The notes beneath the pieces are model-generated. The model made no database searches, was not told the DNA's origin, and was given only the letters and a program-made list of their open reading frames with translations. A DNA stretch of 64,000 bases. Source: an uncultured Anaerolineaceae bacterium (GTDB lineage: Bacteria > Planctomycetota > Phycisphaerae > FEN-1346 > JAACEH01). Position numbers and translations under genes: made by a program. Of this stretch, positions 1,070-21,052 are shown one piece after another. Numbering within the stretch: the stretch's first letter is position 1; every line of letters starts with the position of its first letter. The stretch covers positions 6,479 through 70,478 of the forward strand of contig CAZCOA010000004.1 of the NCBI GenBank assembly GCA_964500225.1. Reading direction: 5' to 3'.

Positions 1070-1419
1070 GCGATCAATATCGACAGGGAGAAGCATACGG
1101 ACCGAGTTCGTCAGACGTTCACACTTCTCGTCCACCACGGCAGCCAACTAAACCCATATTCTCCCAATGCCTGCATGGAACACAAGGAAAAACCACGCGG
1201 CGCGGTAAGCACGCGGCGGCCCCGACGCGCACGGTCGCCAGTGGCCCCTCTATTGTGTGATGCAAGTCACCCAGCGATTCCGCGTGGACGCGTAACCTAG
1301 ATCGGCGAGAATCCAGCATTCGATTGATTAGCAGTGCCTGGAGTCCTATAATTCGCAAGACCGGAGCGGCGTTGCACGTGCATTGCATACGTTGGCGTCT
1401 GATCGGGATTTTCGTCAAG

Positions 1420-1443
1420 ACGGAATGACGACGGTCATTCCGT
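1420..1443. promoter_or_regulatory. Perfect 10-bp inverted repeat with 4-nt spacer (ACGGAATGAC-GACG-GTCATTCCGT), candidate operator or RNA hairpin in the 5' region of the metF-cluster
   Basis: Read directly from the sequence. It lies in the divergent intergenic region between the left-edge permease start (1069) and the first plus-strand gene (1442/1511). Confidence 0.4.
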
Positions 1444-1510
1444 GCGAGGTCCGACGGTGGATAAGTTGACGTCAGGCGAATTGAAACGACTAGGCGACAG
1501 CCGCATACTC

Positions 1511-3526
1511 ATGGAGCGGGAGTGGTCGCCATGCAGATACCATTGCCCTGTTCATGCCGATGTGAGGTCGTACATCGAGTTGGCGGCGCGGGGGCGGTGG
1601 CGCGAGGCGATCGACGTGATCCGCGAGCGTCTGCCGTTTGCGTCGGTGTGCGGTCGCGTGTGCCACCACCCGTGCGAGGCCAACTGCCGCCGTGCGGGCG
1701 TGGACGAGGCCGTGGCGATTCGCGAGGTGAAGCGGTTCGTCAGCGAGCGACAGGGCGCCTCAGGTGCGACGGTGCGGCGGATGAAACAGGACAAGTCGCC
1801 GGTGGCCATCGTCGGCGCAGGCCCTGCCGGCATGGCCGCAGCGCTGGACCTGGCGGTTCGGGGATATCGGCCTACGGTTTTCGAGAAGTTTCCCGTCGCG
1901 GGCGGCATCCCGGCCACTGCCATCCCGCGATATCGCCTACCGCGAGACGTTCTTCAGCAGGATATCGACTGGATCTGCGCCCACGGGGTGAACGTGGTCA
2001 CCGGCGTCGAGATCGGCAAGGACAAAACCCTCGTCGATCTGAAGAAGGACGGTTTTGCGGCCATCGTCATTGCCACGGGCCTTGCGCTGTCGAGGACGTT
2101 GCCGATTCCCGGATCGGACCACGAGCGCGTCTATCCCGCGCTCAGTTTCTTGACGGCGGTGAACTTCGACCGGCCGCCGCCCATCGGCTCAGACGTCCTG
2201 GTGATCGGCGGCGGCAACGTGGCCATGGATGCGACGCGGACGGCGGTGCGGCTTGGCGCGGCTCGCGTTCGGGCGATGTGCCTTGAGGCCGAGGACGAGA
2301 TGCCGGCGTGGGACTGGGAGCGAAACGAGGCGGCCGAGGAAGGCGTCGAGTTCATCCATCGTCGCGGACCGACAGAGATTGTGATTCGCCAGGGGCGGAT
2401 CGTGGCGATTGCGGCGAGGAAAGTCACCCGCGTTTTCGACGATGCCCATCGGTTCGATCCGCGTTACGACGATGCGGACGTCGTACGCGTGGAGTGCGAC
2501 ACCGTGATCATGGCGATCGGACAGACGGCGGACATGGGGTTCCTCGTCGGAAGTTCTTTGACGACCGATGCCCGCGGCCGCTTGGTGTACGATTCGGCAA
2601 CACATCAGACGAGCGATCCGTCCGTCTTCGCGTGCGGCGAAATTGTGACCTCGCCGGGATCGGTCGTGGAGGCTTGCGCGTCGGGACAGCGTGCAGCCAA
2701 GGCAGTGGACCTGTTCCTGAGCGGCAAAACCATCCGGATTGCCGACGCATTGCCGCCGGTAATTGGCGAGATCGCCCCCGACACCGCCGCCAAGGTATCG
2801 AAAGTGCCGCGAAATGCTGCGCTGCAACGGCCTGCGGACGAACGCCGGTGCGATAGTCTGCCCATTGACGCAAACTTCACGGCGGATGCGGCCATGCGCG
2901 AGGCACAGCGCTGCATGGGTTGCGGCGGCGGGGCCGAAGTCCTGATCGACAAATGTGCGGCGTGCCTGACATGCCTGCGTGTCTGTCCGTTCGACATCCC
3001 GGTAGTCACCGACGTGGCACGAATCGAGTCGTCGCTCTGCCAGGCGTGCGGCATGTGTATCGTCGAATGTCCGGCCAACGCCATCGTGTCGCGAAGCTGG
3101 GACATGTGCGAAGAGGTGAGGAACACAGCCGCGCGGCTGGCTGCCATCAGCGTCCGACCGAAGGTGGTGGCCTACATCAACGGGTACCATGCTCCGGCGG
3201 CCGCCTGGAGTGAATCGCCGGAGGAAGCCATACCCGGCGTGCTGGAGGTCTGGCTGCCGAGTGTGAGCCGCCTGGGCGTAGCCGAGATGCTTCGTGCCAT
3301 TGAGGATGGGGCGGACGGAATCGTGGTGGTGACGGGTTACCTGGGCGGCGATCGTTACCCCACGGCGAGCGAACGAGTCGCTCGCCGCGTCGAACAGCTC
3401 CGGGTGATGCTGAGTGAAATCGGCATGAACCCCGAGCGTGTGCAGATGGTCCGCTGCGCGGATGAAGGGCGCGATGCCATGCGCCGGGCCATCGCAGAAG
3501 CAGTCGCGAAGATTACGGCATGTTGA
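1511..3526 (+). CDS. GltD/NfnB-like FAD/NAD(P)H oxidoreductase fused to a 2x[4Fe-4S] ferredoxin domain and an MvhD-like domain (HdrA-like partner of MetFV). Alternative GTG start at 1442
   Basis: N-terminal Cys cluster typical of the glutamate-synthase small-subunit family (CRYHCP...CGRVCHHPCEANC). Rossmann motif VAIVGAGPAGMAAA. C-terminal CxxCxxCxxxCP motifs (CAACLTCLRVCP, CQACGMCIVECP), followed by an MvhD/FlpD-like segment (VVAYINGYHAPAAAW...GADGIVVVTGYLGGD). It sits immediately upstream of metV-metF. Confidence 0.8.
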   Translation: MEREWSPCRYHCPVHADVRSYIELAARGRWREAIDVIRERLPFASVCGRVCHHPCEANCRRAGVDEAVAIREVKRFVSERQGASGATVRRMKQDKSPVAIVGAGPAGMAAALDLAVRGYRPTVFEKFPVAGGIPATAIPRYRLPRDVLQQDIDWICAHGVNVVTGVEIGKDKTLVDLKKDGFAAIVIATGLALSRTLPIPGSDHERVYPALSFLTAVNFDRPPPIGSDVLVIGGGNVAMDATRTAVRLGAARVRAMCLEAEDEMPAWDWERNEAAEEGVEFIHRRGPTEIVIRQGRIVAIAARKVTRVFDDAHRFDPRYDDADVVRVECDTVIMAIGQTADMGFLVGSSLTTDARGRLVYDSATHQTSDPSVFACGEIVTSPGSVVEACASGQRAAKAVDLFLSGKTIRIADALPPVIGEIAPDTAAKVSKVPRNAALQRPADERRCDSLPIDANFTADAAMREAQRCMGCGGGAEVLIDKCAACLTCLRVCPFDIPVVTDVARIESSLCQACGMCIVECPANAIVSRSWDMCEEVRNTAARLAAISVRPKVVAYINGYHAPAAAWSESPEEAIPGVLEVWLPSVSRLGVAEMLRAIEDGADGIVVVTGYLGGDRYPTASERVARRVEQLRVMLSEIGMNPERVQMVRCADEGRDAMRRAIAEAVAKITAC

Positions 3527-3566
3527 GACCGCAGACGTGCCGACATCGAACACGTTGCGGCAGGAG

Positions 3567-4265
3567 ATGGCGTCTATGATCGTAGCTGAACGCAAACCGA
3601 TGGACGAAATTCTCGCGATGCTCGCACCGTACCGAAAGGTGTTGGTGCTGGGTTGTGGCGGATGCGTGACGGTCTGTCTGACGGGGGGCGAGAAGCAGGC
3701 CGAGCTGTTGGCTGGGCAACTACGACTGGCGGCCCGACAGGCCGGACGGACGCTGGAGACCGCCTTTGACTGCATCACGCGGCAGTGCGAGCGGGAATTC
3801 TTCGACAATCTCACGGAGGACCCTCGCAGCTACGATGCCGTGCTCAGCATCGCGTGCGGCGCCGGTGTGCAGTACATGAGTGAGCTGTACCCCGAGGTGC
3901 CGATTCTTCCGGGGATGAACACGACGTTTCTTGGCTCGAACGTGGCGAGCGGCGTGTGGGAGGAGTACTGTCGCGGCTGCGGCGACTGCGTGCTGGCATG
4001 GACGGGCGGCATCTGCCCGATCACCCACTGTTCTAAGAGCCTGATCAACGGGACGTGCGGCGGCACAAACAACGGCAAGTGCGAAGTCAACCCGGAGATG
4101 GAGTGCGGGTGGCTGAAGATTTACGAGCGGCTGAAGGCACTCGGCCACCTGGACAACTACCGGGTGCTTCGTGCGCCTCGCGACCATCGCAAGGACCGCG
4201 GCGGCGGCGTGAGACGGCTGGTGCTCAAGGACATGGCCGAGAGTCAGGAGAGCGGCAATGAGTGA
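3567..4265 (+). CDS. metV: MetV-like methylene-THF reductase accessory subunit (MTHFR C-terminal Zn-ribbon-type protein)
   Basis: CGGCVTVCLTGGEKQ and C-terminal CRGCGDCVLAWTGGICPITHC Cys motifs. Its end overlaps the metF start by 8 nt. Start chosen at an internal ATG (M44 of the track ORF) to avoid overlap with the upstream gene. Confidence 0.7.
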   Translation: MASMIVAERKPMDEILAMLAPYRKVLVLGCGGCVTVCLTGGEKQAELLAGQLRLAARQAGRTLETAFDCITRQCEREFFDNLTEDPRSYDAVLSIACGAGVQYMSELYPEVPILPGMNTTFLGSNVASGVWEEYCRGCGDCVLAWTGGICPITHCSKSLINGTCGGTNNGKCEVNPEMECGWLKIYERLKALGHLDNYRVLRAPRDHRKDRGGGVRRLVLKDMAESQESGNE

Positions 4266-5166
4266 GCCTGTCAGCACACTGGAATCGGCCCTTCGCGCGG
4301 GCACGTTCGTTTTCACCGGCGAGATCGCCCCGCCGAAGGGCACGAATATCGAGCCTGTGATTCGCCAGGCAGTCGCCAGCCTGAAAGGACGATGCACGGC
4401 CGTCAATGTGACGGATATTCAGACGGCCGTGATGCGCGCCTCGTCGGTGGCCGGATGCAAGATGCTGCTGGACGCCGGGGTGGAACCGGTGCTTCAAATG
4501 GTGTGCCGCGACCGCAACCGCCTTGCTCTGCAAAGCGACTTGCTCGGAGCGTATATCCTGGGAATTCGCAATGTCCTGGCCCTGACCGGCGACTATACGA
4601 CACTGGGCGACCACCCGCAGGCCATGCCCGTGTACGATCTGGACTCGGTCGGCTTGCTTGAGGCCATCGTCCGTCTGGAATCAGGCACGGACATGGGCCG
4701 GGACATGAAGGGAAACCCAAACCAGTTAGACGGATCGCCGCGATTCTTCAAGGGGTGTTGTGTCACGCCGTGTGCGGAGGTGGTGGAACCGCAGATCATC
4801 AAGCTCGAAAAAAAGGTAGCCGCGGGGGCACAATTTGTTCAGACGCAGGCGGTGTACGATCCGGCCGCCTTTGAAGCGTTCATGCGCAGAGTGGAGCCGC
4901 TCAAGGTGCCCGTGCTGGTGGGGATTGTCATGCTCAAATCAGCGGCCATGGCGAAGTATATGAATCGTTCGGTGCCGGGCGTGGTGGTTCCCGAGTGGAT
5001 CATCACTCGACTGAACGAGGCGTCGAAGGAGGATCGGCAGAAGGTGTCGATTGAGATTTGCGGGCAACTGATCCGCCAGATGAAGGGCTGTTGCCAGGGG
5101 GCGCACCTGATGACGCTGGGGTGGGACCACTGCGTTCCTGAACTCATCGCCGCGGCGGAGGCATGA
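4258..5166 (+). CDS. metF: 5,10-methylenetetrahydrofolate reductase
   Basis: 302 aa. Motifs FVFTGEIAPPKG...VNVTD...LQMVCRDRNR...ILGIRNVLALTGD are typical of bacterial MetF/MTHFR. Translationally coupled to metV. Confidence 0.9.
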   Translation: MSEPVSTLESALRAGTFVFTGEIAPPKGTNIEPVIRQAVASLKGRCTAVNVTDIQTAVMRASSVAGCKMLLDAGVEPVLQMVCRDRNRLALQSDLLGAYILGIRNVLALTGDYTTLGDHPQAMPVYDLDSVGLLEAIVRLESGTDMGRDMKGNPNQLDGSPRFFKGCCVTPCAEVVEPQIIKLEKKVAAGAQFVQTQAVYDPAAFEAFMRRVEPLKVPVLVGIVMLKSAAMAKYMNRSVPGVVVPEWIITRLNEASKEDRQKVSIEICGQLIRQMKGCCQGAHLMTLGWDHCVPELIAAAEA

Positions 5167-5224
5167 GGAAGCGGGCGCATGCGGCGCGACACGTGCCCAC
5201 GCGGCAACACGTCAAGGAGATCAC

Positions 5225-5593
5225 ATGAGCCAGACCGAAGCCGTGGTCCGTTATCTGGATGAGACGCCGGCGACAGATTGTCCCTATGGCAACGTCCGCC
5301 GAGTGGTCACTGGCGGCCTCGGCGGCGTGGCCAACGTGCACGTGGTGACGGTCACGGCAGGAAGCCCGCACGTCCACACCGGGTACGACGAAACATACTA
5401 CGTTTTAGCGGGCACGGGCACCATTTCCCTGGCCGGGCGTGACTACGCACTGCGGCCGGGGGCGGTGGTCGTGATTCCTCGCGGCACGGAACATGCGCTC
5501 CAAGCCGATAGAGGACAGTCGCTGGAATTTGTGATCTTCGGAACGCCGGCCATGGTCGCCGACGACGAACGTTTTATCCCCCGCAAGCCGTGA
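5225..5593 (+). CDS. Cupin-domain protein
   Basis: 122 aa. Has a cupin-like core (GSPHVHTGYDETYYVLAGTG...VVVIPRGTEHAL). 58 nt downstream of metF. Confidence 0.55.
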   Translation: MSQTEAVVRYLDETPATDCPYGNVRRVVTGGLGGVANVHVVTVTAGSPHVHTGYDETYYVLAGTGTISLAGRDYALRPGAVVVIPRGTEHALQADRGQSLEFVIFGTPAMVADDERFIPRKP

Positions 5594-5780: not shown

Positions 5781-7436
5781 TCAGCCTCCGCCGTCTCGCA
5801 GGATTCGCCGGAGGCTCAGAGCTCCGGTCGGGCAATGCTCGACGCATCGCCGGGCCGTACGACGAAGAGCCTCGCTCAGTTCCGAAGAGAACGGCGCCGC
5901 CGTGCGAACGCTGAAGCCGCGTCCGATGAACGTGAGGCCGAGCGTTTCGCGATCCTGTTCCGCAATACGCACGCAACGACCGCATTGGATACATTTGCCG
6001 GACTCGTACACGATGTCGGGATGTGTGGCGTCGCGCTCGAAGCGCCGGCGAGGACCATGGTACCGCGTCGGCGACGCGCCGTACCGGGCGGCCAGTTGAC
6101 GCAACGTACACGAATCGCGCTTGCCGCAGTCACAATCGAGGCAGCGTGCGGCCTCGGCACGGGCTTCCTGGTCGCCGCTCGTCCCGCCGGGCTTCGGATT
6201 TGCAGAATCACACATGCCGCGGGGACGCGGGTCGGCCTTCCCACGGAGCACTGCTATCTCGTCGGCGCTGAGACCATGCATGATGACATTGACATGCGAT
6301 GACTCACCAACAACCTGGGCGCCTCGCACGAACTGGTCAACGGCTATGGCTGCCCGGCGGCCACTCGCCACGGCATGAACACCGTAATTGGGACCGGTCA
6401 CGACATTTCCGGCGGCAAAAACGCCGGTACGGCCCGTGGCCAGCGTGGCGCGGTCCACCCGCACGCCTCGGCGGGATACCTGGAGGCCTAAGGTCCTCAA
6501 CAGCGAGAAATCGTACTGCACCTCACCGCCGGCCAGCCGTCCTTCGCCATAGATGGTCTTCTGGTCCATCGCGGTCTGCGTGCCGAGGGCTAGGATAACG
6601 GCCTGGTGCCGGACGAACAGTTCGTCGAGGCTGACGTCCCGTCCAAGACAGACGCCAGATTGCAAATCCACGCCGAGACGCAGAATTGCAGCGATTTCCG
6701 CGTCGATCACATCGTGGGGCAGTCGTTGTTCGTCGATGCCATAGCGGAAAAGCCCCCCGGCCTGCGTTTGTGCCTCGTACAACGTGCAGGCGTGCCCCAT
6801 CTGCCGCAGATAACATGCTGCGGAGAGGCCGGCGGGCCCAGCGCCGACTACGGCAACACTCTTGCCCGACTCGGCCGCACAGTCGGGTACATGCGGATCG
6901 CTGGAAGCGAGGTCCATGTCGGCCACCCAGCGGTGCAGATCGCGAATATTGACGGGCTGGTCCAGATCTTTGCGACGGCATGCTCGTTCGCAGAACCGCG
7001 GACACACGCGTCCTAGAGAGGCCGGCAGGGGGAGCCTCCGCCAGACAATGCTTGCTGCCCGCCGGGTGTCATCGGCCACAATCGCAGCGATAAAGTCGGC
7101 CACCTCCAGGTGGGCCGGGCATGCCAGCGAACATGGCGCCACGCAGTCGCCCGGGTGGTCGCTCAGGAGAAGCTCGATGGCCGTCCGGCGGGCTTGCAAC
7201 ACCACCTCGGATTGTGTCCGCACCACCATGCCCTCGGCCACAGGCATAGCGCACGACGGTTTTAGATCGGCCAGCCCATCGATCTCGACAACGCACATGA
7301 AGCAGGACGTGTGCGGCTCGAAACCGTCGAGATGACACAACGTTGGAATGTCGATCCCCAGACGGCGCGCGGCCTCCAGGATGGTGGTCCCCTGAGGCAC
7401 GTCGATGCTGCGATTATCGATGATCACTCTCGGCAC
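5781..7436 (-). CDS. 2Fe-2S ferredoxin (NuoG/HydA-N-terminal type) fused to GltD-like NAD(P)H:FAD oxidoreductase (StnC/NfnB-like subunit)
   Basis: N-terminus MPRVIIDNRSIDVPQGTTILEAARRLGIDIPTLCH...SCFMCVVE (plant-type 2Fe-2S). Then the GltD N-terminal Cys cluster (CVAPCSLACP...GRVCPRFCERAC). Then VAVVGAGPAGLSAACYL and GLFRYGI motifs. C-terminal extra Cys cluster (CLDCDCG...CIQCGRC). Last gene of the nuoE-nuoF-like operon. Confidence 0.8.
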   Translation of the reverse strand: MPRVIIDNRSIDVPQGTTILEAARRLGIDIPTLCHLDGFEPHTSCFMCVVEIDGLADLKPSCAMPVAEGMVVRTQSEVVLQARRTAIELLLSDHPGDCVAPCSLACPAHLEVADFIAAIVADDTRRAASIVWRRLPLPASLGRVCPRFCERACRRKDLDQPVNIRDLHRWVADMDLASSDPHVPDCAAESGKSVAVVGAGPAGLSAACYLRQMGHACTLYEAQTQAGGLFRYGIDEQRLPHDVIDAEIAAILRLGVDLQSGVCLGRDVSLDELFVRHQAVILALGTQTAMDQKTIYGEGRLAGGEVQYDFSLLRTLGLQVSRRGVRVDRATLATGRTGVFAAGNVVTGPNYGVHAVASGRRAAIAVDQFVRGAQVVGESSHVNVIMHGLSADEIAVLRGKADPRPRGMCDSANPKPGGTSGDQEARAEAARCLDCDCGKRDSCTLRQLAARYGASPTRYHGPRRRFERDATHPDIVYESGKCIQCGRCVRIAEQDRETLGLTFIGRGFSVRTAAPFSSELSEALRRTARRCVEHCPTGALSLRRILRDGGG

Positions 7437-7442
7437 TGGGGT

Positions 7443-9284
7443 TCACTCCACCTCGATGGCATCCGCCGGACAGCCGGCCCTACACATGCCGCAACGGATG
7501 CACTTCTCGGAATCGATGGTGTGTTGCTCGTACGGCGTCGGTTGAATGGCCTGGACCGGGCATCGCTGGGCACAGCGTGTGCAGCCGATGCATTTGTCCG
7601 TAATGCGGTAGGTGATAAGGGCCTTGCACTTGCGCGCCGGGCAACGGCCCCGGAGATGGGCCTCGTACTCGTCGCGGAAATAGCGCAGAGTCGTCAGCAC
7701 GGGGTTTGGCGCCGTCCGCCCCAAGCCACAGAGGCTGGTGTGTCGCACCTGGTCGCATAACATCTCTAGATCGTCGAGATCCTCGGGCCGCCCCTTGCCA
7801 TTGCATAGCCGTTCGAGGATGTCGAGCATGCGTCGCGTACCGACGCGGCAGAATGTGCACTTGCCGCACGACTCTTTCTCGGTGAACTCGAGGAAAAACC
7901 GTGCGATGTCCACCATACAGTCTGTGTCGTCGAGCACGACTAGGCCGCCGGAGCCCATGATAGCGCCCGTGCGGGTCAATGCCTCGTAGTCGATGGGCAG
8001 ATCGGCCATGGAGGCTGGAATGCAGCCGCCCGACGGCCCACCGATCTGGACCGCCTTGAAGCGGCGTCCCTCATGCACACCGCCGCCGATCGTCTCGACC
8101 ACCTCGCGAATGGTCATGCCCATGGGCACTTCGATGAGACCTCCGCGCCGGACGCGGCCGGCCAGGGCGAACACCTTGGTTCCTTTGCTGTGCTCCGTGC
8201 CAATGGAGGCGAAAGCGGCGGGACCATGGCGAAGGATCCACGGCACACAGGCGAATGTCTCGACGTTGTTGACAATCGTGGGCTTGCCCCACAAGCCGCT
8301 TTCGGCGGGATAGGGCGGACGGAATCGCGGCATGCCGCGGCGTCCCATAACGGAGGCTATCAGGGCCGTTTCCTCGCCGCACACAAACGCCCCGGCCCCT
8401 TCCATGACATGGAGCCGCAGTGAAAATCCCGTCCCCAAAACATCCTGCCCAAGATATCCGGTCCGCTCCGCTTGGGCGATGGCCTCGCGGAGCACGCGGA
8501 CGGCCAGCAGGTACTCGGCGCGGATGTAGATGTACCCTTCGGCGGCGCCGATGGCGTAGGCGGCAATGGCCATGCCTTCGATGACCCGCTGCGGGTCGCT
8601 TTCGAGAACGAGCCGATCCATGAAGGCTCCGGGGTCGCCTTCGTCGGCGTTGCAGACAACGTACCGTGTCGTGTCCGCCTGCCGTCGGGCTGCGGCCCAC
8701 TTCAGGCCGGTCGGATATCCTGCGCCACCCCGACCACGCAGCCCCGACTGCGTGACAACGTCGATCACCTGCTCGGGGGTCATATCCGTAAGGCACCGGC
8801 GCAGGGCCTCATATCCTCCACGTGCCAGGTACTCGGCGATGCACAGCGGATCGATCTGCCCGCAGTTCTCCAGAACGATGAACTTCTGTTTGCCTGTGGA
8901 CCCAGCTTCAGCGTCGGAATCGGAATGCGTCGCAAACGGCTTGATCGACGCCCACGCCTCGTCCGAAAGGAGCATGTCCGCCATGCGGCCGGCCCAGGCC
9001 ATGGCCCTACCGACCAGGCCCGTGGGCCTTGCGCAGTCGCGTACGATGCGTCGCGCCGCGGCCGGCCTGACACCTCCGAACACTTTGCGGCTTCCATCCG
9101 TCGAAACCACCTCGACAATAGGCTCTTGATGGCACAGGCCGCTGCACCCGACGGCTTTAACCGGAACATGGAGACCATGACGAAGGGCGGCATCGCGGAC
9201 GGCCTCATGCACGGACCGTCCGCCGCTGGCAATGCCGCAGGTGGCCAGGCCGACGCGAATCTCCTTGACGTTGTGATCGCTCAT
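7443..9284 (-). CDS. NuoF/HoxF/HydB-like NADH-binding FMN [4Fe-4S] subunit with C-terminal 2x[4Fe-4S] ferredoxin domain
   Basis: 613 aa. GLRGRGGAGYPTGLKW, VVCNADEGDPGAFMDR, ESCGKCTFCRVG and CIGCTRCAQRCP/CIRCGMCRAGCP motifs. These are classic 51-kDa subunit signatures. Confidence 0.9.
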   Translation of the reverse strand: MSDHNVKEIRVGLATCGIASGGRSVHEAVRDAALRHGLHVPVKAVGCSGLCHQEPIVEVVSTDGSRKVFGGVRPAAARRIVRDCARPTGLVGRAMAWAGRMADMLLSDEAWASIKPFATHSDSDAEAGSTGKQKFIVLENCGQIDPLCIAEYLARGGYEALRRCLTDMTPEQVIDVVTQSGLRGRGGAGYPTGLKWAAARRQADTTRYVVCNADEGDPGAFMDRLVLESDPQRVIEGMAIAAYAIGAAEGYIYIRAEYLLAVRVLREAIAQAERTGYLGQDVLGTGFSLRLHVMEGAGAFVCGEETALIASVMGRRGMPRFRPPYPAESGLWGKPTIVNNVETFACVPWILRHGPAAFASIGTEHSKGTKVFALAGRVRRGGLIEVPMGMTIREVVETIGGGVHEGRRFKAVQIGGPSGGCIPASMADLPIDYEALTRTGAIMGSGGLVVLDDTDCMVDIARFFLEFTEKESCGKCTFCRVGTRRMLDILERLCNGKGRPEDLDDLEMLCDQVRHTSLCGLGRTAPNPVLTTLRYFRDEYEAHLRGRCPARKCKALITYRITDKCIGCTRCAQRCPVQAIQPTPYEQHTIDSEKCIRCGMCRAGCPADAIEVE

Positions 9285-9790
9285 CGGCCCGACTCCTTGC
9301 GCACCTTGTCGATGATGATGGTGGCCTTGTGGGGCGTGAGTCTGCCGTAGGTCACATCGTCAATAGTCATACACGGCGCCAGGGAACAGCAGCCAAGGCA
9401 CGGAACCTTCTCGATGGTAAAGAGGCGTTCGGCGTCCGTGTCTTCGTGGTCGTCGTCGATGCCCAGGTGGCGGCGGATTGCCTCGGTAATCAGCGGCGCC
9501 CCGGCCACGTGGCAAGCGGTGCCGTGGCAGACGCGAACCCTATGTCGGCCGACGGGCTTGTGGCGGAACTGGCTGTAGAACGTCGAGACGCCGGCGATCT
9601 GAGCCGCCGTAATCTCCGTCGTGCGGCAGATATGCTCCAGGGCCTCTCTGGGCAAATAGTGGAAGTGCGCCTGAATCGCCTGGAGAATGGGAATCGCCGC
9701 ATCGGCGGTCGTTCCCGTCCGGCGCACGATATCGTCCACTACCGCCAGGTCGATCGGCTCGTCCACAGGTTGTCGCTTCGCCTTGGTCAT
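9281..9790 (-). CDS. NuoE/HoxE-like 2Fe-2S thioredoxin-fold subunit
   Basis: 169 aa. CHGTACHVAG ... CLGCCSLAPCM, the 24-kDa subunit Cys pattern. ATGA overlap with the downstream nuoF-like gene. Confidence 0.85.
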   Translation of the reverse strand: MTKAKRQPVDEPIDLAVVDDIVRRTGTTADAAIPILQAIQAHFHYLPREALEHICRTTEITAAQIAGVSTFYSQFRHKPVGRHRVRVCHGTACHVAGAPLITEAIRRHLGIDDDHEDTDAERLFTIEKVPCLGCCSLAPCMTIDDVTYGRLTPHKATIIIDKVRKESGR

Positions 9791-9802: not shown

Positions 9803-12010
9803 TCACTTGCCAATGCAGAACAGCTTCTTCTCTCCCCGAATGAGAATCCGGCCCTCGACAAACGCCGGTGAAGCAGATGTCTTCTCTCCCACCTTGCACG
9901 TGTCTTTGAGCGAAAAGCGGTCACCGAAGTCGAAGAGGAACATGTCGCCCTGGCGGCTGGGCAGGTACACGGTATTCCCAACCAGCGAAGGTGACGGGGT
10001 CATGGACGTCTGAAAATCGTGCTGCCAGAGAATCCGTCCGTCAACGGCCCCATAGCACACCACCGCACCGTAGCTGTGGACGTGAAGATAGTAACGCTCG
10101 TTGGCCAGCGGGCTGACGATATTGGGCAGATCGGTATCGTCCCTCCAGAGAACATGCGTCGCGGTCACGTCGCCACTCCCCCCTGCCCTGACGGCTGTCG
10201 CATGGCTGTACTCGTTGGCGACAAAGACGATGCCCCCTGCAACCACCGGACTCGGACCGACCTCGCCGTCGATGGCCGCAGCTCGCCAGAGTTCGGCCCC
10301 GGTGGCCGGCGCATAGGCGATGACGAGCGGCGCGGCAGCGGTGATCAACTCGTCTCGATCGCCGATCCGGGCGATAACGGGCGTGCTCCAGGCCGAGCGC
10401 ACCGGCCGCACGGTCTCCCAGATCACGCGCCCCGTAGAGGTATCCATGGCCAAAATGGACGACTTCTCCTCGCTCGGTTCGAGGCCCTGGTCAAGCTGGA
10501 GAATGACCATGTTCTTATACGGCACCAGGGACGACGCCAACCCATAGGGAGTGTCGGGCTCGCCGAGATTGATGGACCACTTTTGTTTTCCGTCGTGCCC
10601 GATGCCGGCAACGTCGGCGTTGGCAAAGGTCACATAGACGCCTCGGGCATCCACGGCCGGCGTTGGAGCGGCCAGGCCTGTGTCGGGAAACGCTTCCACC
10701 TTCTTGCCGGCCATGGGACTGTTGGGCGGAGACTTGACCTGTGTTCTCCATAGCACGCTGCCGTCGCGAAGACCAAAACAGTAAAGCCAGTTCCGGTCGG
10801 CGTCGGCGCTGGTCAGATAGACGTGATCGCCCCAGACCACAGGGGAACTGTTGCCGTCGGCGGGGAAGCCCTTCTCGGGGTCTCCGATGGGAACCGCCCA
10901 CAGAATGCCCTTGCCGGTCGTCGCATTCCATTCGGTGGGCCAGTCGCCTTCAGGAACAAGGCCGCAGCCCGTGGGTCCGCGGAATCGCGGCCACGTGAGC
11001 GTAACGGCGGAGGCGTCCTCCCCGGCGCCGTCGGCTCCCCCGGCATCGCTCGCCAGCCGCACCGTCGGGACGACAAGTGCCACGGCCACCGCTGCCGCGG
11101 CAAGCACGCCGGCGCCACAGGTGACGGCGTGCGAGTTTCTCTTGGCGACGACCTCCCAGTCCGGCTCTTCGGCGCCAGCGTCCAGCGGGGGACCGGGCGG
11201 TCTGTGGCCAAGCCACGCATACCCATGGAAACAGAGGACCGCAATTACCGCCCCCGCCAGGAGCATCCAACGCCCGACGGCCATCTGTCGGCTGCGAGCA
11301 AAAAAGTCTCGTCGAAGGGCGGCATCCTCGTTGCGAATGGCCTCCTTAACAAGCTCGTCATCGGGCGACTCGACAAGCTGCCGGTGAAGCTCGGCCATAC
11401 GGGGCGGATTCTGCCAGAGAAGATCATAAGCCGACGTGTAGTTGCGCAACATCGTCACCACAATGATTGCCGAGAACGCGGCGGCAAGAACCCCCAGGGA
11501 CATGAGCATGGAGCGTACCAGCGTCGCGGAAGGGCGCTGACGCATATTGATTGCCCATCGCCACAGACCGGATGTCGCGCGAGTCCACCAGGTCGCCCCT
11601 TCTGTCCACCTGACGTGTTCGCGCGGACACGACGCGAAACACCTTCCGCAACTGACGCATAAGCCCGATTCGATCTGGAATTCCTTGTGCATTGGTACCC
11701 GAGACATGGCCGCGGCCTTCAGCGTCGCCACCAGACCACACCCGAATCCCAGCAAAGCACACCCGATCCGGAACCGACGAACAATGCTCGCGGCCTCCCT
11801 TCGCAACAGTTCCTCGTCGCCGCCCTGCATGCGAAAGGCGCGAACCTCGAACGTGTCGGCGGCCTCAGGCGTTGCGGACCCCGGACCGAGCACCAGTTCG
11901 GCAAGGGCCACCGTGCGATGGCTGCGCGCCGGTACGTGGCCGACCATCCACCCCGCGGCGGCCAGCACCAGCGGCAGCACGGCCAGGAGAATTCGCAAGG
12001 CGGTCTTCAC
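9803..12010 (-). CDS. Membrane protein with predicted cytoplasmic-loop 4Fe-4S motif (CVSCGRCFASCP), about 5 TM helices, and a C-terminal periplasmic PQQ-like beta-propeller. Probable GTG start at 12010; the ORF-track ATG at 12121 would overlap napH-like by 108 nt
   Basis: Single ORF with no internal stop. N-terminal TM helix (TALRILLAVLPLVLAAAGW), further hydrophobic segments, and the CxxCxxCxxxCP motif between TM2 and TM3. The C-terminal about 400 aa contain PQQ/BamB-like repeats (WPRFRGPTGCGLVPEGDWPTEW..., ILWQHDF...). Confidence 0.6.
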   Translation of the reverse strand: MKTALRILLAVLPLVLAAAGWMVGHVPARSHRTVALAELVLGPGSATPEAADTFEVRAFRMQGGDEELLRREAASIVRRFRIGCALLGFGCGLVATLKAAAMSRVPMHKEFQIESGLCVSCGRCFASCPREHVRWTEGATWWTRATSGLWRWAINMRQRPSATLVRSMLMSLGVLAAAFSAIIVVTMLRNYTSAYDLLWQNPPRMAELHRQLVESPDDELVKEAIRNEDAALRRDFFARSRQMAVGRWMLLAGAVIAVLCFHGYAWLGHRPPGPPLDAGAEEPDWEVVAKRNSHAVTCGAGVLAAAAVAVALVVPTVRLASDAGGADGAGEDASAVTLTWPRFRGPTGCGLVPEGDWPTEWNATTGKGILWAVPIGDPEKGFPADGNSSPVVWGDHVYLTSADADRNWLYCFGLRDGSVLWRTQVKSPPNSPMAGKKVEAFPDTGLAAPTPAVDARGVYVTFANADVAGIGHDGKQKWSINLGEPDTPYGLASSLVPYKNMVILQLDQGLEPSEEKSSILAMDTSTGRVIWETVRPVRSAWSTPVIARIGDRDELITAAAPLVIAYAPATGAELWRAAAIDGEVGPSPVVAGGIVFVANEYSHATAVRAGGSGDVTATHVLWRDDTDLPNIVSPLANERYYLHVHSYGAVVCYGAVDGRILWQHDFQTSMTPSPSLVGNTVYLPSRQGDMFLFDFGDRFSLKDTCKVGEKTSASPAFVEGRILIRGEKKLFCIGK

Positions 12011-12012
12011 GA

Positions 12013-12870
12013 TCAGACGTCCTCCTCGGCCGTAGCCGGACGGATCGCGCCGAACGGACACGTGTCCTCGCAGAGGCGGCAATTCATGCACTCGTCGGGA
12101 GTGATGGCCACATGTTTCCACGCCACGCGGCTACACAGGCCGAGCAGAGCCCCGTACGGACACAGGAACCGGCAATAGGGACGCCCGACAAACATGGAGA
12201 GGATCAACAGGACGCCGCCAGAAATCATCACGGGCAGATTGCCGTCGAGCCGGAACAAACCGACGAAGGGGTCCCAACGGCACACGATAAAGACGCTGTC
12301 GGTGGCAGCCATGAGTATGGCCGCGCCGAGATAAACGAATGGGACAAGCCCCAGCATCGACTGGAGCCAGAGGGGCACGCGCACTGGGCGTATGAGAACC
12401 AGATCCTGGATGGCGCCGAGCGGGCAGACGCCGCCGCAAAATACCCGGCCAAAAAGCAGAGCAAAGACAATGGGTAGCACAAAGATGAGCACCACGGAAA
12501 CCGGCAGCACGTAATCGGCATCGGCCAGCGCGAGCGTTACGTTCTGAATCGAGCCGATCGGGCACACACAGCCGCCGAGGTAGAAGCCGAAGTAGACCAG
12601 CGACGCCACGGCCAGCCAGCGTATCGCCGCACGGCTTCTCAGACGCAGAGAGAACCAAGCGCTGAGGGCGAGCCCGGCTGCCAGCGCGCCCACGTGGACC
12701 ATATCCATCCATGGCGGCAATCGCAGCGGCCGCTGGTCAAGCTCAGGCAACTGGTGCCCCGAATAGAAGTCCGGTGGCGGAAACCGCTCAACGGCCCGCA
12801 CATCGGCAGCACACACAGCCGCCGCGACCAGCGTCAGGGCCACCCAAAGAAGTCGTCGGCGAGTGTTCAT
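12013..12870 (-). CDS. NapH/MauN-family membrane-bound [4Fe-4S] protein (quinol dehydrogenase-type polyferredoxin)
   Basis: 285 aa from internal ATG (MNTRRRLLWVALT...). Four hydrophobic helices. GGVCPLG/CPYGALLGLC and CMNCRLCEDTCP motifs. ATGA overlap with the upstream napG-like gene. Confidence 0.75.
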   Translation of the reverse strand: MNTRRRLLWVALTLVAAAVCAADVRAVERFPPPDFYSGHQLPELDQRPLRLPPWMDMVHVGALAAGLALSAWFSLRLRSRAAIRWLAVASLVYFGFYLGGCVCPIGSIQNVTLALADADYVLPVSVVLIFVLPIVFALLFGRVFCGGVCPLGAIQDLVLIRPVRVPLWLQSMLGLVPFVYLGAAILMAATDSVFIVCRWDPFVGLFRLDGNLPVMISGGVLLILSMFVGRPYCRFLCPYGALLGLCSRVAWKHVAITPDECMNCRLCEDTCPFGAIRPATAEEDV

Positions 12871-13454
12871 CCGCCCTCCTTCTGTCGTCCGAGGTGCTTG
12901 ACGACGTACGGACGATCGGTTGGTACGCGCATGAAGGCATCGGAGGGACACTGAGCCGCGATGGCGCACTGGTTGCAGTTGAGACAGCGGTCCTGACGCA
13001 CCTGGAGATAGAGCGATCCGTTGCCGTAGTCGGTGCAGCCTTTGGCGCAGATGCCGCAACCGGTGCACAGCGACTCGTCGATATGGTATTCGTAATACGG
13101 ATCCTCGACGAAGCGACGTATGATCGCGCCTGCCGGACACAGTTGGTTCTCAGCCCCGGTCTCCAGCTTGTTGGGCTCTGGATGGAAAAAGCCGGTGCAC
13201 AAGTCGCAGTAGCCGCACATCGCAAAATCGTGTACGCACTTGACCGCGGAGTTTTCGAGGACACATGCCGTGCGGCAGTTTCCACACTGGATACACTTGA
13301 AGGGATCGATCTGCCACACATAGCCCTTGGTGCGTGCCCTACCGCCGGCGGCAAGACCGACGCCGGCAATCCCGATGCCGAGCAGTCCGCGAGCAATACC
13401 GCCGAGGAACCCGCGGCGCGTCAGAGCCTGATTAGTCGTGCGTTCGTCGCTCAT
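12867..13454 (-). CDS. NapG/MauM-like periplasmic ferredoxin with twin-arginine signal, 4x[4Fe-4S]
   Basis: Tat motif TRRGFLGG. Four Cys clusters (CIQCGNCRTAC, CGYCDLC, CTGCGICAKGC, CLNCNQCAIAAQCP). Confidence 0.75.
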   Translation of the reverse strand: MSDERTTNQALTRRGFLGGIARGLLGIGIAGVGLAAGGRARTKGYVWQIDPFKCIQCGNCRTACVLENSAVKCVHDFAMCGYCDLCTGFFHPEPNKLETGAENQLCPAGAIIRRFVEDPYYEYHIDESLCTGCGICAKGCTDYGNGSLYLQVRQDRCLNCNQCAIAAQCPSDAFMRVPTDRPYVVKHLGRQKEGG

Positions 13455-13798
13455 CGCGTGGTCGTCCTGTCATTGGCGACGGCACTGTGGGCGCGCCGCC
13501 CCTGCTCGCACAGGGCATCCTTCGGCTCAGCCTCTGCATGCCGCGATATGCGGACCGCCGTCACCAGACCGAGGCCCCTGCTCCGCTGCTGCTCTGCCTC
13601 GGGCAAGCGGCACGACTCGAAGGCCCGGCAACGAGCACACGGCGCAGTCGTTAGTCCACCACCCAATTGCCGCCGCCGGGAGGGCGCGACCAGCCGCACC
13701 GCCGCAGCTCCGACCAGGGCCAGCCCCGACCAACGGACCGCACTGGCCAACACGTCTCGCCTCGTCAGCCTCCGACAAATGCCGTGGGAATCCGTCAT
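13451..13798 (-). CDS. Small Tat-signal Cys-containing hypothetical protein
   Basis: 115 aa. RRLTRRDVLASAV Tat-like motif. CARCRAFESC cluster. ATGA-type overlaps with both neighbours suggest it is a genuine co-translated ORF, but composition is low-complexity. Confidence 0.4.
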   Translation of the reverse strand: MTDSHGICRRLTRRDVLASAVRWSGLALVGAAAVRLVAPSRRRQLGGGLTTAPCARCRAFESCRLPEAEQQRSRGLGLVTAVRISRHAEAEPKDALCEQGRRAHSAVANDRTTTR

Positions 13799-14763
13799 CT
13801 TTCTTCCTCATCACGTTCGAACACAAGCACCTCGTTCTGCGCCGGATCGACGACGAATATTCGCCCGCTTGCGTCCACAGCCAGGTCCATGCCGGCGCTG
13901 GCAGGGGTAAAGAACTCCGTGCCGATGATCCCCAGAACCCGTCCTTGGCGGTCGCTGACCTTGACACGGGGCGACCGGCCCTTTTCCGCGGTGACAACGC
14001 AGCAGTCAGCCGTCAGCGCAAGATTCGTCGGGTTGCAGCATCCGGGGAATCGGTTCGGCGCCATCCCCTGCCCGCCCCAGTATTCAAGACGCACGCCGCC
14101 GCGGCTGAATCGCTCGACGCGCCAGTAACCCGGATTCGTGATCATCACGTCACCGCCCGGTTCCACTGCCACATCCATGTACGGACTGGGGCAGAGAATT
14201 TGCGGCCGTCCCGTCGTCTCGTCGCGACCGGCCACACTGTCCACCAGGTCGCCGCTCACGTCGAAATGGTGCAAGGCTCGATTCCCCGCGTCTGCAAGCC
14301 ACACATCCACGCCATGCACAGCGATGCCCGTGACACATCCCAACTCTCCATGCCCGTCTCCGGGACGGCCCCAGGAGCATGTGAGCGTCCCGTCGGAATC
14401 GAAAACGTGGACGCACGTTTTCTCGGTCGCAAAGACGCGTCCCTCGGCCCCCACGGCCACCGCCGTGACCGGGCCCGGCGTCGGCATGTGACGGATCTGC
14501 ACCCACGCGGCGTCATACACCGTCACGCCGCCGGCCGAGGCCAGGTAGATGCGGCCATCATCGCCAAGGGCAATGCCCCTGAGGCCCTCGACGGCCGGCG
14601 TCTGCTTCAGAACCAGGCGGTATGTCCTCGGCATGGCCGTCGCCGCAGACTCGTCCCCCCTGCCGTGACCGACCGACGATGGGGCGTCCTTGTCAGCACA
14701 GCCGCACAGGCACATGGCGACAAAAACCTGGATGATCGTCCGTCCGTTCGTCATGGCTATCAC
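13795..14763 (-). CDS. NHL-repeat beta-propeller lipoprotein
   Basis: 322 aa. N-terminal signal with Cys (VFVAMCLCGCAD). Repeated motifs (GIALGDDGRIYLA, GIAVHGVDVWLAD, PMDVAVEPGGDVMITN, GMDLAVDASGRIFVVD) typical of NHL repeats. Confidence 0.65.
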   Translation of the reverse strand: MIAMTNGRTIIQVFVAMCLCGCADKDAPSSVGHGRGDESAATAMPRTYRLVLKQTPAVEGLRGIALGDDGRIYLASAGGVTVYDAAWVQIRHMPTPGPVTAVAVGAEGRVFATEKTCVHVFDSDGTLTCSWGRPGDGHGELGCVTGIAVHGVDVWLADAGNRALHHFDVSGDLVDSVAGRDETTGRPQILCPSPYMDVAVEPGGDVMITNPGYWRVERFSRGGVRLEYWGGQGMAPNRFPGCCNPTNLALTADCCVVTAEKGRSPRVKVSDRQGRVLGIIGTEFFTPASAGMDLAVDASGRIFVVDPAQNEVLVFERDEEER

Positions 14764-14785
14764 AGGCCCCTGCCTGCCCCAAACG

Positions 14786-16198: not shown

Positions 16199-16331
16199 GC
16201 CGGCACTCCCCGTCTGCACGAGTTGAACGGATGAATTATAGACTATGGAGCACCGCGCGGATAGGCGCAAACGCCTCGCCGGAGCGTCTTCGCCGACCGC
16301 CGGCCCTCACAGAGTAAACGCGATGGAGTAG

Positions 16332-21051: not shown

Positions 21052-21052
21052 G

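Follow-up and report, generated by a model that had tools for sequence, protein, structure and literature searches.

A conserved GltD/NfnB-like::ferredoxin::MvhD-fold fusion gene upstream of metV-metF, a putative NADH-oxidising partner of methylene-THF reductase

The window (the whole 64-kb stretch of DNA that was analysed) carries a three-gene set, fusion-metV-metF, which spans 1457-5166 on the + strand and bears out the original prediction of a single fusion protein encoded upstream of metV-metF (Table 1). Three start candidates are available for the fusion gene, GTG 1442, GTG 1457 and ATG 1511, all leading to the same end at 3526. GTG 1457, which gives 689 amino acids, is the likely start, because this codon and the N-terminal peptide are kept in L002, an 89%-identical relative, a GAGG lies at 1447-1450, and L002 lacks a start codon at the position equivalent to 1442. 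Overlapping stop and start codons, as claimed earlier, are found between metV and metF, where the overlap is 8 nt (junction ATGAGTGA), but not between the fusion gene and metV, where the stop TGA (3524-3526) is separated from the ATG at 3576 by 49 nt and AGGAG at 3562-3566 precedes this ATG. Downstream, the cupin gene ends at 5593 and a minus-strand gene of 551 amino acids ends convergently at 5781, leaving a gap of 187 nt. The second NAD(P)H-flavin module (the nuoEF/GltD-like operon) expected to converge about 190 bp away is therefore correctly placed, but it is conserved with the cluster solely in the closest relative and is without its own NADP(H) subdomain.

Table 1. Features of the locus and their coordinates in the window
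Feature	Coordinates	Strand	Remarks
Promoter-like TTGATT-17 nt-TATAAT	1324..1352	+	10/12 consensus positions; consensus match only
Perfect 10-bp inverted repeat ACGGAATGAC/GTCATTCCGT	1420..1443	+	5' leader hairpin, 4-nt loop
Fusion gene	1457..3526	+	689 aa; NfnB/GltD-like::2x[4Fe-4S]::MvhD-fold; proposed NADH-oxidising large subunit
Fer4_20 (DPD domain II) Fe-S domain	1526..1753	+	six invariant Cys: C26, C30, C65, C69, C73, C77 (689-aa numbering)
FAD + NAD(P)H Rossmann domains (Pyr_redox_2)	1802..2686	+	GGGNVAMD at 2207-2230; Cys-Leu-Glu at 2279-2287
2x[4Fe-4S] ferredoxin domain	2912..3073	+	CxxC pair, then two CxxCxxCxxxCP motifs
MvhD-fold domain without cluster cysteines	3143..3523	+	FlpD HMM E 2.3e-13; fold match 5odc_D
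metV	3576..4265	+	229 aa; Cys-rich small subunit of MetVF-type reductases
metF	4258..5166	+	302 aa; catalytic methylene-THF reductase subunit
Cupin gene	5225-5593		open reading frame downstream of metF

In the upstream region, the block TTGATTAGC...TATAATTCGCA is kept in L002, while the DNA on either side diverges. The predicted perfect inverted repeat exists and its hairpin lies 3 nt upstream of the GAGG ribosome-binding site, but such repeats are no more frequent than chance allows, with two perfect hairpins of at least 10 bp observed in the window against about one expected, and the fold z-score is -1.7. L002 has a hairpin of other sequence (GATGGCC/GGCCATC) at the equivalent place, and 25 other relatives have none. 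The hairpin is probably a lineage-specific leader structure.

Pfam searches (residues in 694-aa numbering, counted from GTG 1442) place Fer4_20 at 29-104 (E 1.8e-17), Pyr_redox_2 at 121-415 (E 4e-34), a Fer4 dicluster at 503-548 and FlpD/MvhD at 600-692 in the fusion protein. These domains confirm the predicted composition GltD-like::2x[4Fe-4S]::MvhD-like, and the C-terminal domain scores as MvhD-like (50.6 bits; cut-off 22.3). The AlphaFold model of the full-length protein (pLDDT 91.8, pTM 0.90) matches, best first, NfnABC (9bov_A), StnABC (8oh5_C) and NfnABC (9n5u_A), then NfnI, DPD and GltD. The six cysteines of Fer4_20 do not vary across 120 closest and 116 more distant homologues. The first CxxC of the N-terminal motif of GltD is absent from this domain and may be provided instead by an invariant RCxxCG at residues 485-490. 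The ferredoxin region matches both the ferredoxin domain of HdrA and the C-terminus of HdrA2, and none of its ten cysteines varies among the distant homologues. A high-confidence structure (pLDDT 92.9) predicted for the C-terminal domain has MvhD chains as its top matches (5odc_D best, E 6e-9, TM 0.79), and the first non-MvhD match has E 7e-3. HMM and predicted structure thus agree that this domain has the MvhD fold.

The fold is retained without its cluster ligands. In an alignment to solved MvhD chains, the four conserved cysteines correspond to Asn575, Ser602, Gly627 and Asp632, and at least two of the four are missing in 120/120 of the closest homologues. Judged from this alignment, with none of the four conserved cysteines left, the domain of this organism cannot bind a [2Fe-2S] cluster, and its supposed role as an electron relay is not borne out here. 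An invariant Arg-Tyr and an acidic residue are retained, and the domain would be a scaffold rather than a relay in this lineage, probably serving only to dock or position MetV. In the more distant homologues all four cysteines are present in 114/116, so the domain probably relays electrons in the orthologues of Brocadiia, Armatimonadota and Nitrospirota.

The identity of metV and metF is supported by Pfam, with DUF5981/MTHFR_C in MetV (E 1.4e-35) and MTHFR in MetF (E 4e-38). Eleven cysteines of MetV are invariant in 26 orthologues and one further is nearly so, and a structure search found no MetV homologue among solved structures. The nearest solved relative of MetF is Thermus MetF, at just E 8.5e-8.

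The fusion is a conserved partner of metV-metF. The order fusion-metV-metF occurs in 37/37 related loci with readable downstream DNA, in Phycisphaerae, Brocadiia, Armatimonadota and Nitrospirota. It is retained in 28/28 Phycisphaerae-type loci with readable downstream sequence, in 3/3 distant loci of about 40% identity (Brocadiaceae, Planctomycetota, Nitrospirota) and in six further contigs, one of them a complete Armatimonadota genome with 4-nt overlaps between the genes. At least three phyla are spanned, with some junctions of 4 nt or 1 nt. The link to C1 metabolism is seen in 12 loci with fhs and/or folD within 6 kb, one of which also has CODH/ACS (acsB-cooS-cooC/fhs-fusion-metV-metF-folD), and the 64-kb window holds no other C1 gene. 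In Nitrospirota and Brocadiia-like contigs the cluster adjoins folate-biosynthesis genes (folE, pabB/pabC), which fits a general reductase and not solely an energy-conserving one. Five Desulfobulbales genomes carry a solitary fusion gene without metVF, surrounded by unrelated genes, so the gene can occur genomically apart from metVF. The protein had been called novel; it is uncharacterised but not rare, as public data hold hundreds of full-length homologues under generic names.

Together, the three genes may encode one methylene-THF reductase. MetF would reduce methylene-THF at its own flavin, MetV would be its Fe-S adaptor, and the 689-aa protein would be the electron-input subunit, in which a hydride passes from NADH to FAD in the NfnB/GltD-type module. 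Single electrons would then travel from FAD by way of the [4Fe-4S] clusters in Fer4_20 and in the C-terminal ferredoxin domain, first to MetV and then to MetF. Such an added module fits because a site for NAD(P)H is lacking in MetF and MetV of the MetVF type; the Acetobacterium remedy for this is the extra NADH module RnfC2 (PMC8760232). If this reading is true, MetVF would probably gain NADH electron input through a large flavin/iron-sulfur protein. The donor is more likely NADH than NADPH, because Cys-Leu-Glu stands in place of the Tyr-Arg-Arg of NfnB, StnC, NfnABC-A and GltD, and this Leu-Glu, replacing the Arg-Arg of NADPH enzymes, is invariant in 236/236 homologues examined. The nucleotide call is not unanimous, since the Rossmann motif of the fusion is GxGxxA, which some authors take as NADP-type (PMC12054007).

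Simple, non-bifurcating NADH:methylene-THF reduction is taken as the base case, plausible but tentative. DPD and GltD, with the same module in linear wiring, match the structure strongly, within 10 kb neither the window nor any of six annotated relatives encodes HdrBC (CCG-domain) or RnfC, and the invariant Leu-Glu, the gene order kept across phyla and the nearby fhs/folD genes also speak for it. The solitary Desulfobulbales genes, the GxGxxA motif and the lack of further C1 genes in the window count against it. The top-scoring relatives of the flavin module are, moreover, all bifurcating (NfnABC 311 bits, StnC 261 and NfnB 205, against 175 for GltD and 129 for DPD), and the Nfn-type Arg is kept. 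This favours a rival, possible but rather doubtful, in which the same three-subunit complex performs flavin-based electron bifurcation with NADH at the NfnB-type FAD. The downhill arm would run from the C-terminal ferredoxin domain through MetV and MetF to methylene-THF (about -200 mV) and the uphill arm from the Fer4_20 clusters to ferredoxin, giving 2 NADH + Fd(ox) + CH2-THF -> 2 NAD+ + Fd(red) + CH3-THF; an oxidative Wood-Ljungdahl pathway could use the reverse reaction to oxidise methyl-THF. Bifurcation is consistent with nearest solved relatives that are subunits of bifurcating NfnABC, StnABC and NfnAB, with a single flavin module that bears two distinct Fe-S arms, with homology of the C-terminal half to the HdrA2 C-terminus, and with the operon inside a CODH/ACS-fhs-folD cluster in one relative, a setting for which energy conservation at this step is the classic open question (PMC8760232). 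The Arg of the YRLP motif, discussed as a flavin-radical tuner in SudA/StnC, is invariant here and is Lys in GltD. However, the N- and C-terminal clusters of DPD form one linear chain, NADH-driven methylene-THF reduction is roughly thermoneutral by textbook potentials, and an anabolic role is enough where the cluster adjoins folate-biosynthesis genes. RnfC2-MetVF likewise has an NADH module on MetVF without a need to bifurcate (PMC8760232).

It is improbable that the large protein is not bound to MetVF and acts as a free-standing NADH:ferredoxin (or NADH:other acceptor) oxidoreductase, co-transcribed since reduced ferredoxin is the in vitro donor of type II MetVF. Purified MetVF enzymes do accept electrons from reduced ferredoxin but not from NAD(P)H (PMC8760232), solitary copies exist, and one obvious contact or relay element, the MvhD-like domain, is degenerate. 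Yet NADH-driven reduction of ferredoxin alone is a strongly uphill reaction that has to be paired with a second, exergonic acceptor, the genes keep their order and translational coupling across phyla, and a cluster-less MvhD fold that stays under selection, with its invariant Arg-Tyr and acidic residue, argues for a protein-protein role. An equally unlikely arrangement is a type IV-like enzyme with other parts encoded elsewhere, where the large protein replaces HdrA and MvhD; HdrBC-like or other partners and a second acceptor would still be needed, as proposed for Moorella. The homology of the ferredoxin and MvhD part to HdrA2 agrees with this, as does ANME-1 locus L045, where metV-metF is followed by a GltD-like::ferredoxin::2xCCG (HdrB/D-like) fusion that combines GltD-like modules and Hdr-type catalytic domains. 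Against it stand the CCG-domain genes missing from the same 10-kb neighbourhoods and a three-gene unit that is the sole constant part.

Four types of MetF/MetVF reductase have been described: MetF alone, MetVF, RnfC2-MetVF and MetVF-HdrABC-MvhD (PMC8760232). The subunit composition encoded here is outside these types, and no "type V" methylene-THF reductase was found in the open literature up to 2026. HdrA variants (fused MvhD in type Ia/HdrA2, inserted GltD in type III and "HdrL" of Desulfobacterium) share the GltD-like NAD(H) module, ferredoxin domains and MvhD, but they keep the HdrA flavin core and HdrBC partners. The fusion has no HdrA core and is linked to metVF, an arrangement not found described in the literature on these variants. 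DPD and GltBD send electrons from NAD(P)H through FAD and a chain of clusters to another flavin, housed in a TIM-barrel catalytic domain, comparable to the wiring of the base case, and DPD also has di-cluster domains at both termini; here, however, the catalytic unit consists of separate polypeptides, MetF and MetV, and sequence similarity is lower (129-175 bits against 205-311 for Nfn-type proteins). The best sequence and structure matches are NfnB, StnABC and NfnABC (4ylf_B, 5jca_L, 8oh5_C, 9bov_A, 9n5u_A) over residues 7-472 (671-aa numbering). They share the Fer4_20, FAD and nucleotide domains and the YRLP Arg, and the NfnABC A chain (9bov_A) also has RCxxCG after the flavin module. Unlike them, the operon has no NfnA (PyrK-like) or NuoEF partner, Cys-Leu-Glu replaces the NADPH motif, and the fusion bears an MvhD-fold domain with MetVF as its conserved partner.

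Type IV, MetFV-HdrABC-MvhD, is found in Moorella thermoacetica and also in marine Chloroflexi, Actinobacteria and Acetothermia. It resembles the present system in its MetF and MetV core, an adjoining MvhD-fold element, a donor proposed to be NADH and a flavin/Fe-S partner for which bifurcation is suspected. It differs in that the operon here has three genes without HdrBC, the flavin module is of GltD/NfnB type and the HdrA thioredoxin-reductase-type flavin domain is missing, and MvhD forms part of a fusion protein, in this lineage without cluster cysteines. RnfC2 of type III (Acetobacterium woodii) belongs to the RnfC/NuoF-type FMN proteins and has a MetV-like domain at its N-terminus, whereas the fusion, which is unrelated to it, is a FAD protein of GltD/NfnB type that carries a ferredoxin domain and an MvhD fold. 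Under the non-bifurcating reading, type III is nevertheless the system closest in function, as it likewise has three subunits, of which an extra flavin/Fe-S subunit is the NADH site for MetVF.

The 689-amino-acid protein encoded upstream of metV and metF is a fusion of an NfnB/GltD-like flavin module, two [4Fe-4S] cluster motifs and a C-terminal MvhD-fold domain. A Pfam search matched each of the predicted parts, namely Fer4_20, Pyr_redox_2, the di-cluster region and FlpD/MvhD. Fer4_20 followed by FAD and NAD(P)H Rossmann domains is the architecture of the NfnB/GltD small subunit, as found with both Pfam and NCBIfam. The NCBIfam model for GltD with a C-terminal ferredoxin (PRK12771) matched residues 22-548 (E 3e-124, below the curated cut-off), and the HdrA2 model matched residues 498-691. 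MetF was identified by Pfam PF02219 (MTHFR TIM barrel, E 4e-38 over 8-297 of 302 amino acids) and MetV by PF12225 (MTHFR_C/DUF5981, E 1.4e-35). The two genes adjoin and overlap, and their original identification is upheld; in gene content the pair matches the MetVF core of reductase types II-IV. MetV is rich in cysteine, with eleven cysteines invariant across 26 orthologues. The window MetF matched the MetF proteins of E. coli and Thermus with E-values of 1e-3 to 1e-7, a distance that hints that it may lack an NAD(P)H site of its own.

Coordinates of the fusion protein domains (694-amino-acid numbering) and of the operon and its neighbours
Feature	Position	Strand	Remark
Fer4_20	residues 29-104		Pfam
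Pyr_redox_2	residues 121-415		Pfam
4Fe-4S di-cluster region	residues 503-548		Pfam
FlpD/MvhD	residues 600-692		Pfam, E 2.3e-13
Sigma-70-like element TTGATT-17-TATAAT	1324-1352		upstream of operon; conserved with the 89%-identical relative
Fusion gene	ends 3526	+	three candidate starts; GTG 1457 best supported
metV	3576-4265	+	ORF
metF	4258-5166	+	ORF
Small cupin gene	5225-5593	+	ORF
551-aa protein, like the large GltD/NuoG-type subunit of Stn/NfnABC	ends 5781	-	convergent operon 5781-9790
NuoF-like gene	7443-9284	-	convergent operon 5781-9790
NuoE-like gene	9281-9790	-	convergent operon 5781-9790

Among solved structures, the flavin part scored highest with the A chain of Caldicellulosiruptor NfnABC (9bov_A, 311 bits), followed by Thermococcus NfnABC (9n5u_A, 273 bits), the large GltD/NuoG-like subunit of Sporomusa StnABC (8oh5_C, 261 bits), NfnB (4ylf_B, 205 bits; E 1.8e-59), the NfnI large subunit (5jca_L, 203 bits), GltD (175 bits; E 3.3e-50 for 6s6s_G) and DPD (129 bits). 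The full-length AlphaFold model (pLDDT 91.8, pTM 0.90) gave the same order in a fold-based ranking, and Foldseek matched it to the NfnB/GltD family with TM scores of 0.77-0.80 (normalised to target length) and rmsd values of 2.7-3.1 Å. Two CxxCxxCxxxCP motifs, the RCxxCG pair ahead of them at residues 485-490 and the six Fer4_20 cysteines are invariant in 116 distant homologues.

The nucleotide site of the fusion protein differs from that of these relatives. NfnB, the Sporomusa Stn subunit, both NfnABC A chains and GltD carry Tyr-Arg-Arg after the second strand of the nucleotide domain, and NADPH use is documented for Stn and stated in the depositor names of GltD. The window protein has Cys-Leu-Glu at this position and thus lacks the NADPH specificity motif; the Leu-Glu pair, Leu276-Glu277, is invariant in all 236 homologues examined. 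In Rossmann domains, arginines at this site bind the 2'-phosphate and an acidic residue excludes it. Because Leu-Glu replaces Arg-Arg, this general rule suggests that NADH is rather probably the substrate nucleotide. By another rule of thumb, the GxGxxA glycine motif of the protein suggests NADP. The original prediction of an NAD(P)H-linked module stands as far as the Rossmann domains are concerned, with NADH favoured over NADPH by the Leu-Glu pair.

The C-terminal domain proved MvhD-like in family and fold, but all four of its cluster cysteines are replaced. It matched PF02662 (MvhD/FlpD) with 50.6 bits against a cut-off of 22.3, and the MvhD chain 5odc_D by sequence with an E-value of 6.4e-5. 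A separate model of residues 545-671 (671-amino-acid numbering; pLDDT 92.9) found MvhD chains as its top four PDB fold matches (E 6e-9 to 2e-6, TM 0.72-0.79); 5odc_D was the best of them (E 6e-9, TM 0.79), and the first non-MvhD match had an E-value of 7e-3. Aligned to solved MvhD, the window protein has YINGYH for FCCNWC, LPSVSR for VMCSGR and TGYLGGDRY for GGCH(I/L)GDCHY. The four conserved positions, taken as the columns with Cys in both MvhD and distant orthologues, are Asn, Ser, Gly and Asp in the window protein; the ligand role of these cysteines is assigned from conservation and from the family description quoted in PMC5736913 rather than from coordinates. Every one of the 120 closest homologues (58-100% identity) has Ser or Thr at position 2 and Asp or Glu at position 4; Cys occupies the remaining two positions in no more than about two thirds of them, in an uncorrelated manner. 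In contrast, all four cysteines are kept in 114 of the 116 distant homologues (37-52% identity), whose named sources include Brocadiaceae, Brocadiia, Armatimonadota, Nitrospirota and Poribacteria. One orthologue with the full set of four is that of Armatimonadota CP070648.1 (L053). These patterns indicate that the cluster-binding MvhD is ancestral and that the site was lost and the fold kept in the Phycisphaerae-type branch. The domain may therefore have a structural or docking role here. No compensating cysteine was seen in MetV of lineages without the MvhD cluster. The N-terminal domain of MetV was considered as a second MvhD-like partner of the degenerate domain and rejected, as the profile-profile probability was just 8.6%.

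Several lines of evidence place the start of the fusion gene at GTG 1457, giving a protein of about 689 amino acids. This codon and the downstream peptide (DKLTSGEL...) are kept in the 89%-identical relative L002, GAGG lies 6-7 nt upstream, the earlier GTG 1442 has no start codon at the matching place in L002, and the N-terminal extension is common to the 120 closest homologues. The overlapping stop and start codons originally placed between the fusion gene and metV are absent, a 49-nt spacer separating these genes; the overlap belongs to the metV-metF pair and measures 8 nt. The perfect 10-bp inverted repeat reported for the 5' region is present at 1420-1443; hairpins of this kind occur at chance level in the window. 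It was rejected as a conserved regulatory element, since only L002 has a hairpin, of another sequence, and 25 other relatives have none. The two leader hairpins (L002 at about 5932-5951) occupy the same place with unrelated stems, ACGGAATGAC/GTCATTCCGT in the window and GATGGCC/GGCCATC in L002, which could be structure conservation or coincidence. Rex control was also discarded: there is no Rex-box near the operon, and a single match with three mismatches at 34311 is at chance level. In L001, the near-identical JGI contig, a Rex gene is located some 9 kb upstream.

The association of the fusion gene with metV and metF was examined by tblastn of the window proteins against 48 loci from species-representative genomes. 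In each of the 28 Phycisphaerae-type loci whose downstream DNA was readable, both genes followed the fusion gene directly, as they did in three loci of about 40% identity, from Brocadiaceae (L036), Planctomycetota (L037) and Nitrospirota (L039). The same three-gene unit occurs in a further six contigs, for which gene calls had been precomputed. In a complete Armatimonadota genome, the three genes overlap by 4 nt. The C1 genes fhs and/or folD occur within 6 kb of the unit in 12 loci. One contig reads acsB-cooS-(Fe-S flavoprotein)-cooC / fhs-fusion-metV-metF-x-folD-pabB-pabC and another folE-folD-fusion-metV-metF. In L052 (14077-16468) and L054 (5438-7729), the cluster is bordered by genes resembling pabB (chorismate-binding) and pabC (class IV aminotransferase), paralleling Sporomusa ovata, where pabAB follows metVF-stn. 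No other C1 or Wood-Ljungdahl gene was found in the 64-kb window, the rest of which encodes Pst phosphate transport, histidine synthesis, PQQ-type propellers, glycoside hydrolases, UvrA and similar functions. Full-length homologues of 46-49% identity, with a degenerate MvhD site like that of the window, were seen in L031-L035 (Desulfobia, Desulfurivibrionaceae and Desulfurivibrio dismutans), with no metVF within 6 kb of the fusion gene. The Desulfobulbales neighbourhoods were dismissed as a clue to another partner, the neighbours being unrelated housekeeping genes.

The predicted second NAD(P)H-flavin operon does end convergently, 187 nt beyond the cupin gene. Its 551-amino-acid protein aligns to the NfnABC chain 9bov_A at residues 5-290 and 443-671, which indicates that its NADP(H)-binding subdomain is missing in full (about 150 amino acids reduced to about 26), as is the C-terminal molybdopterin-like domain. 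Judged from this alignment, the operon is a putative transhydrogenase-like complex without an NADP(H) site. It echoes Sporomusa, in which stn genes follow metVF. The nuoEF-like operon lies beside the cluster only in L002 and is absent in all other relatives; neither it nor the cupin, likewise kept only in L002, was retained as part of the system. The upstream stretch of L001 (1-7355, about 1-8.5 kb before the window start) encodes a Rex-type redox regulator, a second NuoE/NuoF pair and a bidirectional [NiFe] hydrogenase of the Hox type, whose operon comprises a fused NuoE/NuoF-like, a HoxU-like, a small and a large subunit. NADH-linked redox modules are thus plentiful around the metVF operon. 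Several beta-propeller proteins of the PQQ-like/BamB type are encoded in a row (9803-17591, minus strand) upstream of the nuoEF-like genes and in the same orientation, together with small ferredoxin-like genes; a 1180-amino-acid FtsX-domain protein comes next (17602-21144). The propeller protein at 9803-12121 (minus strand) has an N-terminal 4Fe-4S motif and hydrophobic segments. Further on, a 685-amino-acid ORF with DUF116 and polyprenyl synthetase domains (22808-24865, minus strand) adjoins a prenyltransferase/squalene-hopene-cyclase-like gene (21800-22777).

The closest genome of the window is a Phycisphaerae metagenome-assembled genome from an anaerobic system. The JGI metagenome contig (Ga0255811_11372814) has five mismatches in 13.5 kb, at 2525, 3070, 8624, 8644 and 8646. 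By coordinates it would end at about window position 29091, and the window thus derives from a separate assembly of nearly the same strain. In the JGI version, Trp replaces a Cys that is an invariant Fe-S ligand (TGG for TGT, 3068-3070), and the NuoF GDPGAF motif contains Ala and Val; the window has Cys and the conserved residues.

The fuelling of methylene-THF reduction and the possibility that it conserves energy have been at issue in Wood-Ljungdahl bioenergetics since the 1970s. The three-gene operon represents a small, widely conserved alternative that is directly expressible and assayable, with a flavin module from a class, Nfn/Stn, whose structure is understood. Orthologues with and without an intact MvhD cluster site offer a natural comparison. 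A compact complex of this kind would also be a good structural target, as no structure of MetV or of a MetVF-type MetF was found in the PDB copy searched. The database names of fusion homologues are generic, and hundreds of entries called 'FAD-dependent oxidoreductase', 'hydrogenase iron-sulfur subunit' or 'formate dehydrogenase beta subunit' would gain a functional context. Better annotation would improve Wood-Ljungdahl pathway calls in metagenome-assembled genomes of Planctomycetota.

The operon could plausibly, if tentatively, encode a three-subunit NADH:methylene-THF oxidoreductase with wiring like that of DPD or glutamate synthase, and this linear reading is the most economical. A bifurcating version, a compact and self-contained reductase linking NADH, ferredoxin and methylene-THF with the NfnB-type FAD as bifurcation site and no Hdr subunits, is possible but rather doubtful. 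It does have real support: the nearest relatives of the flavin module are bifurcating enzymes, the Arg of YRLP highlighted for SudA/StnC is kept where GltD has Lys, the fusion protein has two Fe-S arms, and one relative has a CODH/ACS context; however, with NADH as donor, the reaction would be close to thermoneutral. If true, the Wood-Ljungdahl pathway would have its long-postulated energy-conserving reductase, which would occur in uncultivated Planctomycetota and several other phyla and in two natural forms, one with the MvhD [2Fe-2S] cluster and one lacking it. The linear three-subunit enzyme and its bifurcating version both take the fusion protein as a partner of MetVF; that it is a free-standing oxidoreductase is unlikely, although its gene stands alone among unrelated genes in five Desulfobulbales genomes. 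Equally improbable is a type IV-like enzyme with partners encoded elsewhere. The fusion protein shares with HdrA models and chains just its ferredoxin/MvhD part (498-691 in the 694- and 480-528 in the 671-amino-acid numbering). Type IV HdrA has a thioredoxin-reductase-type bifurcating FAD domain, whereas the flavin part here is of the GltD/NfnB type. Type IV also has HdrB/HdrC (CCG-domain) genes, whereas no PF02754-bearing gene was found within about 10 kb of fusion-metV-metF in L001 or in the annotated contigs L050-L055.

Four types of methylene-THF reductase have been described, MetF alone, MetVF, RnfC2-MetVF and MetVF-HdrABC-MvhD (PMC8760232), and this scheme is still in use in 2026 papers. 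MetVF enzymes of type II have no convincing physiological donor, RnfC2-MetVF is NADH-dependent and non-bifurcating, and in MetVF-HdrABC-MvhD, HdrA oxidises NADH and the second acceptor is unknown (PMC8760232). Genome papers on Chloroflexi, Actinobacteria, Acetothermia, ANME archaea and Desulfobacterium report hdrA/mvhD next to metVF, or HdrA with GltD insertions; the fusion-protein arrangement is not described in them. No description of the fusion-MetV-MetF subunit composition was found among open-access papers, and within that literature the composition is, as originally suggested, previously uncharacterised and outside the four types. In ANME-1, where a 2022 survey found no HdrA gene next to metF, a Methanophagales metagenome-assembled genome (L045, 4174-8700) has metV-metF followed directly by a 922-amino-acid fusion that joins a GltD-like flavin module and a ferredoxin di-cluster to two CCG (HdrB/D-like) domains. 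Here a module of the same kind has another C-terminal end, an arrangement that bears on how ANME-1 MetF is coupled. NfnAB, StnABC and NfnABC have a partner with a second nucleotide site (NfnA or NuoE/NuoF-like), whereas the operon consists of fusion-metV-metF only. Type III has an RnfC/NuoF-type FMN subunit, whereas the operon is devoid of a Complex1_51K/RnfC domain and no RnfC gene was found near fusion-metV-metF in the loci examined. RnfC2-MetVF would be the functional analogue in the linear NADH:methylene-THF reading.
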